NCBI RefSeq assembly: GCF_030013205.1
Contig: NZ_CP122648.1
DNA length: 64,000 nt
Origin: Escherichia coli
GTDB lineage: Bacteria > Pseudomonadota > Gammaproteobacteria > Enterobacterales > Enterobacteriaceae
Direction: 5' to 3' (one strand)
Shown here: piece after piece, positions 11,127-12,929 of the stretch
How the letters are laid out: each line of letters opens with the position of its first letter
Position numbering within the stretch: position 1 is the stretch's first letter
Notes under the pieces: model-generated
Databases searched by the model: none
Told to the model about the DNA's origin: nothing
The model's input: only the letters and a program-made list of their open reading frames with translations
Program-made: the position numbers and the translations under genes

Positions 11127-11137
11127 TTTTGGATGAT

Positions 11138-11168
11138 GGCCGCCATGTGGCGGCCTGAATTATTTTTT
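11138..11168. terminator. Bidirectional rho-independent terminator between convergent yjiA and brnA
   Basis: ggccgcc-atgt-ggcggcc hairpin followed by ttattttttg. Confidence 0.55.
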
Positions 11169-11462
11169 GTTCTGATCGCGCAGCATCGCTTCACGTAAAA
11201 TTGCGTTCAGGCGAGTTTGATAGCCTTTACCTGGTCGCTTCAACCATTCCATCACATCAGCATCAATACGCACCGAAGCCTGAGTTTTCAATGGCCGATA
11301 AAACTTACCGCGTTCGGCGTTAGACCATTGCTCATCGCTGGAAGGTGGGATATCACTGTAATCAATATCTTCGTCGGATTTATTCGTCAGCGCCTTCAGT
11401 TCGGCCTCATGCTGCACATCGAGTGTAGAGGAGGTCCCTCGTTTATGTTTAACCATGCTCAT
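11160..11462 (-). CDS. brnA: BrnA-family antitoxin (type II TA)
   Basis: About 100 aa starting MSMVKHKRG; C-terminal YQTRLNAILREAM motif typical of BrnA; its ATG overlaps the 3' end of the upstream toxin gene. Confidence 0.75.
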   Translation of the reverse strand: MSMVKHKRGTSSTLDVQHEAELKALTNKSDEDIDYSDIPPSSDEQWSNAERGKFYRPLKTQASVRIDADVMEWLKRPGKGYQTRLNAILREAMLRDQNKK

Positions 11463-11763
11463 AGCGATTCCTCTCTTTACGATCTGCTTTTCGTGCACTG
11501 ATGATTCGAATAATTTCATTTCCGCTTTCGAAACGGATGGTATGCGCAACCAGAATAACCACGATGCCGTAAACCAGGCCGATTGTCTGCCAGCGATACT
11601 CACCGTTTTCTATGCGTTCTTGCTGTGACAAATGTTGTGGATCATCAAACAATAACACCGCATCTTCAAAGCGGATGCCATGTTTCACCCGATTACTTTT
11701 GGCCTTGTTTTCATCCCATTCAAACTCCATTGGCATAATTGCCATCCCTAATTGTATATACAA
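11449..11763 (-). CDS. brnT: BrnT-family ribonuclease toxin (DUF497)
   Basis: FEWDENKAKSNRVKHGIRFEDA...IRIISARKADRKE matches the BrnT signature; the true start may be an internal Met. Confidence 0.75.
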   Translation of the reverse strand: MYIQLGMAIMPMEFEWDENKAKSNRVKHGIRFEDAVLLFDDPQHLSQQERIENGEYRWQTIGLVYGIVVILVAHTIRFESGNEIIRIISARKADRKERNRYEHG

Positions 11764-11934
11764 AAATGTATCTACAATTATTCTGCAATTATAGCGTTGA
11801 TGTTGGAAATAGCATCACGTTTCGAATAATCAACCATGAAATTGACAATGAGTAAGTTGGACTTGATTCATCCAATAGAATTTCTCGCCTGACATGGCAC
11901 ACTAAACACCTCGCTGTCGGGTAATGACTCCAAC

Positions 11935-12438
11935 TTACTGATAGTGTTTTATGTTCAGATAATGCCCGATGACCTTGTCATGCAGCTCCACCGATTTTGA
12001 GAACGACAGTGACTTCCGTCCCAGCCTTGCCAGATGTTGTCTCAGATTCAGATTATGTCGCTCAATGCGCTGAGTGTAACGCTTGCTGATAACGTGCAGC
12101 TTTCCCTTCAGGCGTGATTCATACAGCGGCCAGCCATCCGTCATCTATACCACGACCTCAAAGGCCGACAGCAGGCTCAGAAGACGTTCCAGTGTGGCCA
12201 GAGTGCGTTCACCGAAGACGTGCGCCACAACCGTCCTCCGTATCCTGTCATACGCGTAAAACAGCCAGCGCTGACGTGATTTAGCACCGACGTAGCCCCA
12301 CTGTTCGTCCATTTCAGCGCAGACAATCACATCACTGCCCGGTTGTATGCGCGAGGTTACCGACTGCGGCCTGAGTTTTTTAAGTGACGTAAAACCGTGT
12401 TGAGGCCAACGCCCATAATGCGTGCACTGGCGCGACAT
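11935..12438 (-). pseudogene. insB: IS1 insB interrupted by an in-frame stop
   Basis: Two adjacent same-frame ORFs (97 aa then 69 aa) separated by TAG; reads ...[14 protein letters not shown] where canonical InsB, as I remember it, has ...[13 protein letters not shown]. Confidence 0.6.
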
Positions 12439-12632
12439 CCGACGCCATTCATGGCCATATCAATGATTTTCTGGTGCGTACCGGGCTGAGAGGCGGTGTA
12501 AGTGAACTGTAGTTGCCATGTTTTACGGCAATGAGAGCAGAGATAGCGCTGATGTCCGGCAGTGCTTTTGCCGTTACGCACCACGCCTTCAGTAGCGGAG
12601 CAGGAAGGACATCTGATGGAAATGGAAGCCAC
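12357..12632 (-). CDS. insA: IS1 InsA
   Basis: 91-aa [26 protein letters not shown]..., canonical InsA. Confidence 0.9.
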
Positions 12633-12929
12633 GCAAGCACCTTAAAATCACCATCATACACTAAATCAGTAAGTTGGCAGCATTACCCGGATTCCATAAT
12701 GATTCCACGCCCCGTTATGACAAATCTGCCGCCGATCTTGCCTGGCAAAGGACACTGAAATGGTTTGATAAATATCTCTCCTGATAGGTTTATCTCTTAC
12801 GGGATTACGTCTTAAACAAGCATGAAAAAATAGCGTGCGCAAAAGTCGTTCTTTGCCTAAAATATCGCTATATATGGCGATATATAGCGAATAAAGTGAA
12901 CGATGAATAACCATTTTGGTAAAGTCTTA

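Follow-up and report, generated by a model that had tools for sequence, protein, structure and literature searches.

A restriction-free yjiA-mdtM allele of Escherichia coli, marked by IS1 and probably formed in two steps

The yjiA-mdtM locus of Escherichia coli, known as the Immigration Control Region and listed as hotspot 36 in the E. coli defence-island survey, is delimited by yjiA on one side and by mdtM-yjiN on the other (PMC12707154). The K-12 counterpart of this interval spans 19.4 kb and holds mrr, hsdRMS, symE/symR, mcrBC, yjiV', yjiT, yjiS, yjiR, rpnD' and ytiE; the initial annotation of the DNA studied here had correctly named an island at this place in K-12. In the window (the whole stretch analysed, 64,000 nucleotides of E. 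coli DNA) the anchors are present in the order btsT-yjiX-yjiA...mdtM-yjiN-yjiM, the right side (mdtM, yjiN, yjiM) being given by the open reading frames and by the annotation of K_EC180, and yet between the end of yjiA at 11126 and the start of mdtM at 12903 (a yghW-derived ATG) or 12930 (RefSeq/PGAP) there is only about 1.8 kb. What removed the island, and what took its place next to mdtM?

The gene content of the interval could be read closely, since the swine isolate K_EC180 (CP062203) is 99.94% identical to the window across all 64 kb and its RefSeq annotation transfers directly. According to the open reading frames and that annotation, the interval consists of brnTA, a dead IS1 and a yghX fragment, with no hsd, mcr or mrr gene, and no defence or restriction gene of the kind by which hotspot 36 is recognised lies between yjiA and mdtM (Table 1). 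The short, restriction-free interval described at the outset was thus borne out. The loss of type I and type IV restriction, which had been proposed for the strain, stands for the yjiA-mdtM locus, to which the window annotation limits the claim. The description of the interval as brnTA plus IS1 was right in that both are there, and had overlooked a 270-bp copy of yghX-yghW DNA.

Table 1. Coordinates of the features in and around the yjiA-mdtM interval of the window
Feature	Position	Strand	Basis and remarks
btsT	7756-9906	+	followed by yjiX and yjiA
yjiA	10170..11126	+	conserved left anchor of the Immigration Control Region; ORF and RefSeq annotation of K_EC180
Putative terminator-like GC-rich hairpin in the yjiA/brnA convergent spacer	11138..11155	.	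consensus scan, 7 GC pairs
brnA, antitoxin gene, 100 aa	11160..11462	-	Pfam PF14384, model 1-68 of 68, E 3.1e-17; WP_000063160.1
brnT, toxin gene, 95 aa, intact	11449..11736	-	Pfam PF04365, model 1-77 of 77, E 4.7e-24
Remainder (183 bp) of the brnT/Mrr-like nuclease gene divergent spacer	11737..11919	.	alignment to L003
IS1, 768 bp, deletion scar	11920..12687	-	PGAP: pseudogene with internal stop; junction common to 1,112 genomes
yghX 3' end, ectopic copy (31 codons and stop; dienelactone hydrolase family)	12688..12787	+	abuts the end of IS1
Copy of the yghX-yghW spacer	12788..12902	+	-35 TTGCCT (12853-12858); palindrome with 11-bp arms (12865-12890)
First 18 yghW codons	12903..12957	+	end in the 7-bp microhomology CATGCCG (12951-12957) shared with mdtM
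Chimeric yghW'-'mdtM	12903..14162	+	419 aa if read from the ATG at 12903; PGAP start at 12930 (ATG), 410 aa

The gene pair next to yjiA is a BrnT/BrnA module. Both proteins match their Pfam domains over the full length, and the genes, intact and on one strand, are arranged with the toxin first, the 3' end of brnT overlapping the start of brnA by 14 nt, which upholds the overlap of about 14 nt noticed earlier. A disruption of the brnT frame, which had been named as the finding that would speak against an IS1 deletion, was not seen. In contrast to Pfam, neither NCBIfam nor PADLOC gave a match to BrnT or BrnA, and at the level of structures BrnT matched PDB 7vd7 (E 4e-52), the solved structure of a closely related toxin. 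The full-length domains, the toxin-first operon and the overlapping genes are shared with the type II system whose prototype is that of Brucella abortus; however, the similarity of the E. coli toxin, known here from its sequence, to the Brucella BrnT structure (3u97) is only distant (E 1.6e-4). The operon has been retained and is apparently functional. In island-bearing genomes brnTA adjoins yjiA at the identical position, hence it is best regarded as a survivor pair at the edge of the island that was spared by the deletion. The suggestion that it stabilises the deletion junction is unsupported. In some genomes brnT is missing while brnA is kept, and Ec-91 has an intact, independent IS1 inside brnT. 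A review from 2025 lists brnAT among the toxin-antitoxin systems of the island (PMC12707154).

Members of the IS1 family are about 768 bp long, carry imperfect terminal inverted repeats of roughly 23 bp, and produce their InsAB' transposase from insA and insB by a -1 frameshift. The element in the window has the size and the ends of the family, with terminal repeats GGTAATGACTCCAACTTACTGAT and GGTAATGCTGCCAACTTACTGAT. Its insA is intact (12357-12632, 91 aa) and its insB is broken by a change of TGG to TAG at 12145-12147, where position 12146 has T and intact IS1 has C. By its sequence, therefore, the element is a family member, yet it is a dead, transposase-defective copy. A target-site duplication of 8-9 bp is the mark of a simple IS1 insertion. 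The two flanks in the window, TCGCTGTCG and CGGATTCCA, share no k-mer of 5 or more within 15 bp, which means that there is no such duplication and confirms what had been noted about the flanks from the start.

How widely this arrangement occurs was assessed in 5,426 complete E. coli genomes. The segment of 793 bp that separates yjiA from IS1 was found in 2,112 of them and the left junction, brnT::IS1, in 1,112 (20.5%). To the right of the element two types of junction occur. In the first, found in 451 genomes including E. coli 042 and E24377A (042 type), IS1 is followed by native mdtM upstream DNA; in the second, found in 662 genomes, it is followed by the yghX'-yghW' patch seen in the window (window type). 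The two types sum to 1,113 and so account for the left-junction count. No genome (0 of 5,426) has the brnT side joined to the mdtM upstream region without IS1, so that the IS1-free yjiA-brnTA-mdtM arrangement, which had been named as the other observation contrary to a deletion, is lacking from the whole set.

Relatives free of IS1 show what is missing. In the B2 strains L003 and L004 the homology to the window ends exactly at 11919 and resumes at 12951, inside mdtM. In the alignment to L003, position 11919 lies 13 bp before the GTG start of the Mrr-like nuclease gene of island-bearing relatives, and after brnT these strains have that nuclease gene, hsdM, hsdS, hsdR, symE, yjiS, yjiR and rpnD, and then mdtM. 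The deletion alleles lack 11.27 kb of this DNA, whose restriction gene classes were confirmed by PADLOC. In 042 and E24377A the element occupies the identical left site, and the native mdtM upstream region begins on its right 258 bp before the ATG; the right flank of a 042-type allele (L002, 21561-21839) matches L003 from 24063 onward, that is, native mdtM upstream DNA. The flanks of IS1 in this type are TCGCTGTCG and AAATTTTAA, and here too a target duplication is absent.

The restriction island is therefore missing because of an IS1-bounded deletion, and, with brnT intact and an IS1-free junction found nowhere, the deletion reading holds for a first step. Both flanks of IS1 are collinear with the native locus in 042 and E24377A, whereas in the window only the left flank is, the right one being derived from yghX. 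Hence the IS1-mediated deletion of the island that had been proposed for the window is sustained for the 042-type event, with its 11.27 kb and no duplication, and fails for the right flank in the window, which is yghX-yghW DNA. As that flank was copied from 1.47 Mb away, a second event is needed beyond a simple adjacent deletion. We consider it probable that the Immigration Control Region of the window carries an allele, marked by IS1, that arose in two steps.

In the first step an ancestral island composed of brnA-brnT, a gene for an Mrr-like nuclease, hsdM-hsdS-hsdR, symE, yjiS, yjiR and rpnD would have lost 11.27 kb to IS1, the deleted segment starting 13 bp ahead of the nuclease gene and stopping 258 bp short of mdtM. 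The brnTA genes of the deletion alleles have diverged by 2-3% from the sampled island-bearing alleles, so that the ancestral content is drawn from a moderately distant relative. The product would have been brnT-IS1-mdtM without a target duplication, a state still seen in 042 and E24377A, and it could have been reached by intramolecular transposition (adjacent deletion) or by recombination between two IS1 copies. Adjacent deletion is a classical outcome of intramolecular transposition of IS1, and the 042-type allele fits it fully, since the element is kept at the junction, the target duplication is absent and one flank is unchanged. Had IS1 stood in direct repeat both upstream of the nuclease gene and upstream of mdtM, homologous recombination between the copies would likewise have left one IS1 whose flanks do not match. 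IS1 has, moreover, hit the region repeatedly, as in the brnT of Ec-91 and near rpnD-mdtM in E. coli B strains, where the element is IS1A. However, no genome among the 5,426 has a simple IS1 insertion at either exact deletion endpoint together with an intact island, the top matches being independent insertions. The sequence is compatible with either route, and we regard the recombination of two copies as a serious contender, although an unlikely one.

The two allele types share the IS1, the left junction and the derived nonsense mutation in insB, which implies that both descend from one event. The passage from the 042 type to the window type requires one event, while the reverse would require native DNA to have been restored exactly at the IS1 end; by parsimony we infer that the 042 type is ancestral. 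The transposase would thus have been lost, through the TGG-to-TAG change, after the first step and, given that both types have the stop, the second event probably took place without the transposase of this IS1. Fixed differences between the IS1 of the two types are confined to three sites (12187, 12223 and 12510), all of them right of the shared stop; when polarity is taken from an outgroup, the window type has the derived state at two of these sites and the 042 type at one. This pattern fits a recombination tract that starts inside IS1, and ordinary divergence fits equally well.

The material brought in by the second step is clearly recognisable. The 270 bp at 12688-12957 duplicate, at an ectopic place, the 3' end of yghX together with its spacer to yghW and yghW codons 1-18; in the PGAP annotation the part from yghX is a pseudogene, a truncated dienelactone hydrolase. 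The native yghX-yghW locus is present at 96-99% identity to the patch in 5,417 of the 5,426 genomes, and the K-12 locus aligns to it at 97.8%. K_EC180 itself has intact native yghX and yghW 1.47 Mb from the patch, in the same orientation and on the same strand. The patch differs from this native copy of its host at 11 of 273 positions, 10 of them inside the 270 bp; a comparison with the native copy in another strain gives only 2 differences in 263 positions. Being closer to the latter, the patch would fit an event in some other lineage and a subsequent transfer by recombination. Movement of alleles by recombination is usual for the yjiA-mdtM region.

In the second step, 279 bp right of IS1 (258 bp of upstream region and 21 bp of coding sequence) would have been exchanged for the 270-bp yghX'-spacer-yghW' segment, most likely by recombination with one anchor in the homology of IS1 and the other in the microhomology. 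An IS1::yghX allele, acting as repair template or as incoming DNA, would have served as the donor. The outcome would be a locus with no restriction genes, in which the promoter region, the start and the first residues of mdtM come from yghW, and the allele would have finally spread among lineages by homologous recombination. Combinations of one homologous anchor with a microhomology join are characteristic of homology-facilitated illegitimate recombination and repair. The patch resembles their products in having one end at a repeated IS1 and the other at a 7-bp microhomology. This is a resemblance to a candidate mechanism; a donor with IS1 in yghX, at the CGGATTCCA site of the native gene, was found in none of the 5,426 genomes, where one IS1 in yghX lies about 60 bp away. 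A longer yghX copy adjoining mdtM, as an intermediate before trimming, occurs in none of the 5,426 genomes either, and searches of PLSDB placed the patch on no plasmid, the matches being mislabelled chromosomal records only. The lack of such intermediates tells against the two-step reading. From the classical IS1 adjacent deletion the window allele departs in its second flank, which is ectopic and comes from 1.47 Mb away, in the non-classical second step and in the defective transposase.

The patch might instead have been made by transposition, the resident IS1, or a transposase acting in trans, attacking yghX on a sister chromosome, with a later illegitimate deletion that trimmed the copy to 270 bp and joined yghW to mdtM. 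This proposal would account for a patch that begins exactly at the IS1 terminus, as a joint made by transposase would, and for the absence of a yghX::IS1 donor allele. However, the direct orientation of the patch is that of a deletion-type joint, and on one chromosome such a joint would have cost 1.47 Mb, while the sister-chromosome version needs a megabase duplication that was resolved by a 7-bp microhomology and not by homologous recombination. The insB stop shared by both types suggests that the IS1 was already dead, and the patch allele is unlike the native copy of its host. Transposition is thus an improbable origin of the patch, and recombination anchored in IS1 is the reading retained.

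The Immigration Control Region is the textbook case of a restriction cassette that varies. E. coli C, with its 'empty' site, served for the first definition of the region (PMC12707154), and island variation including that site is the subject of Sibley & Raleigh 2004, as summarised in PMC12707154 and PMC2481252. The window allele belongs with this variation in having the same anchors, the same kind of alternative or missing restriction cassettes, and brnAT; restriction-free versions of the island and brnAT within it are already known from the literature. Identity with the published 'empty site' was considered and rejected: the E. coli C genome shows DUF262, an hsdR fragment, yjiS, yjiR and rpn at that place, all of them lacking from the window allele, which is marked by IS1 and has the 5' end of mdtM rebuilt. 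A literature search gave no description of either the brnTA-IS1 allele or the yghW-mdtM chimera.

Such empty sites raise the question of whether the hotspot was simply never filled, the short interval being its ancestral form, with IS1 inserting later. Islands without restriction genes are common, type I systems being present in only 36% of 8,424 enterobacterial loci (PMC12707154), and E. coli C provides a known 'empty' site. Against this, a target duplication is absent in both allele types, none of the 5,426 genomes has brnT joined to mdtM without IS1, the homology to island-bearing genomes stops exactly at both IS1 ends, and the E. coli C site is built differently (DUF262-hsdR'-yjiS-yjiR-rpn), which together make a never-occupied site very improbable. 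That the junctions are assembly artefacts from collapsed IS1 repeats, which the 13-40 places occupied by IS1 in each genome might suggest, has practically negligible probability, as identical junctions recur in independent complete genomes, 662 and 451 of them, that many laboratories produced on many sequencing platforms.

The main consequence of the second step concerns mdtM. The yghW' segment joins mdtM in frame at the 7-bp microhomology, hence mdtM is a chimera in this allele: the frame opens with YghW residues followed by ATLFF... in place of the native MPRFFARHA, and residues 1-7 of MdtM are replaced by YghW residues. The chimeric protein still matches the NCBIfam equivalog NF011932 with 855 bits (cut-off 700) over residues 15-414 of the 419-aa frame. 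In the 662 window-type genomes (about 12% of the 5,426) the mdtM upstream region proper, including the small ORF ytiE, is gone together with the first 7 residues. The -35 element TTGCCT in the spacer copy is assigned to the reported yghW promoter (PMC3946193). The patch could then be a natural promoter and 5'-end swap, MdtM being expressed from the promoter and start region of yghW, or from a hybrid promoter that includes the IS1 end, a reading that we offer tentatively and hold to be somewhat less probable than its contrary. Were it correct, those lineages would regulate MdtM, a multidrug, bile-salt and alkaline-pH transporter, differently. The chimera could in this way alter the expression of a transporter for efflux and alkaline tolerance, and it records an unusual recombination event; if the proposed origin of the patch is true, it would be a clear natural case in E. 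coli of ectopic patching anchored by an insertion sequence and closed by microhomology. An adaptive change in the -10 region or the Shine-Dalgarno sequence of the patch was also considered and was rejected, as native yghW alleles carry most of the same variants.

The feature is real and ordinary, and it leaves the understanding of IS1, BrnTA and the Immigration Control Region unchallenged, the chimeric mdtM being the one modestly interesting point, worth possible work. A single old deletion marked by IS1 has left about one in five complete E. coli genomes, among them 042, E24377A, B7A and swine ETEC/O139 strains, without a restriction system at the classical hsd locus, and the deletion allele is relevant when restriction barriers or methylomes are predicted from genome sequence. 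More than a thousand RefSeq genomes already have the allele annotated, and its components and the processes behind it are all of known kinds.

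The DNA that now precedes and begins mdtM in the window comes from the patch, an ectopic copy of yghX-yghW sequence fused in frame to mdtM. The copied yghW promoter region (window 12853-12902) retains TTGCCT, the -35 of the constitutive RpoD promoter reported for yghW (PMC3946193). Compared with K-12, the patch carries GGCGAT in place of the -10 GACAAT, and AAAG in place of the Shine-Dalgarno GAGG at the yghW start region; a palindrome spans the -10. Strain 184/2aE has most of these promoter-region variants in its own native yghW, so they are not patch-specific; relative to that gene, position 12893 is the sole patch-specific variant in 12853-12902. 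In the YghW-derived part of the chimeric protein, a G-to-T change at 12925 converts Gly8 to Val in the window and also disturbs the AAGG located directly 5' of the ATG chosen by PGAP at 12930. The change was found neither in B7A, another strain carrying the IS1-marked deletion, nor in any native yghW examined. A consensus scan additionally gave, as a consensus match only, a candidate hybrid promoter directed at mdtM at the junction of IS1 and the yghX fragment.

The small ORF ytiE is positioned 173-208 bp upstream of mdtM in K-12 (L014, the K-12 locus, 4693-4728), a stretch that falls inside the 279 bp that the window-type allele has exchanged for the patch (window 12688-12950 compared with K-12). 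Therefore, ytiE is missing from the window-type allele; the 042-type allele, in which IS1 is followed by native mdtM upstream DNA, still has it.

In strain 720632 (NZ_CP025842.1, 2397539-2404883) the two junctions are on opposite strands, brnT::IS1 on + and IS1::mdtM-upstream on -, with roughly 6.6 kb between them, suggesting a further inversion with one endpoint in the brnT-mdtM IS1. The yjiA-mdtM neighbourhood is a repeated target of IS1: independent insertions are seen in Ec-91, with an intact IS1 within the brnT 5' end and an intact restriction island (L010, the Ec-91 locus, 13728-14770), and in the E. coli B strains BL21 and REL606, with IS1A near rpnD-mdtM. In some genomes brnA is kept without brnT, or a hypothetical gene occupies the brnT place; loss of the toxin first, with the antitoxin kept, is the order expected in the decay of a toxin-antitoxin pair.

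Across the 64 kb, the window differs from the swine isolate K_EC180 by 27 substitutions and 10 indels. At 36350-37075 the window has an intact fimC ORF of 241 aa, a gene annotated as frameshifted in the K_EC180 record. Annotation transferred from K_EC180 places an IS2 element between fimB and nanC (~41700-43000). By annotation transfer only, a further island follows a truncated sialate O-acetylesterase gene, and its gene content would leave 35-50 kb between the empty restriction island and defence-related genes.

Features located in the window
Feature	Position	Details	Basis
Candidate hybrid promoter	12674-12703	-35 TTGGCA within IS1 end; -10 AATGAT in yghX fragment	consensus scan
Palindrome	12865-12890	11-bp arms	
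Island genes	~45300-64000	HNH endonuclease, RadC/JAB, antirestriction protein, DUF932, DUF905	annotation transfer only
Phosphorothioate-DNA-binding restriction endonuclease	~45300-64000 island	fragment	annotation transfer only
IS66/IS3/IS30	~45300-64000 island	pieces	annotation transfer only
fec operon	~45300-64000 island		annotation transfer only
AbiJ-NTD4 gene	~45300-64000 island	edge of window	annotation transfer only
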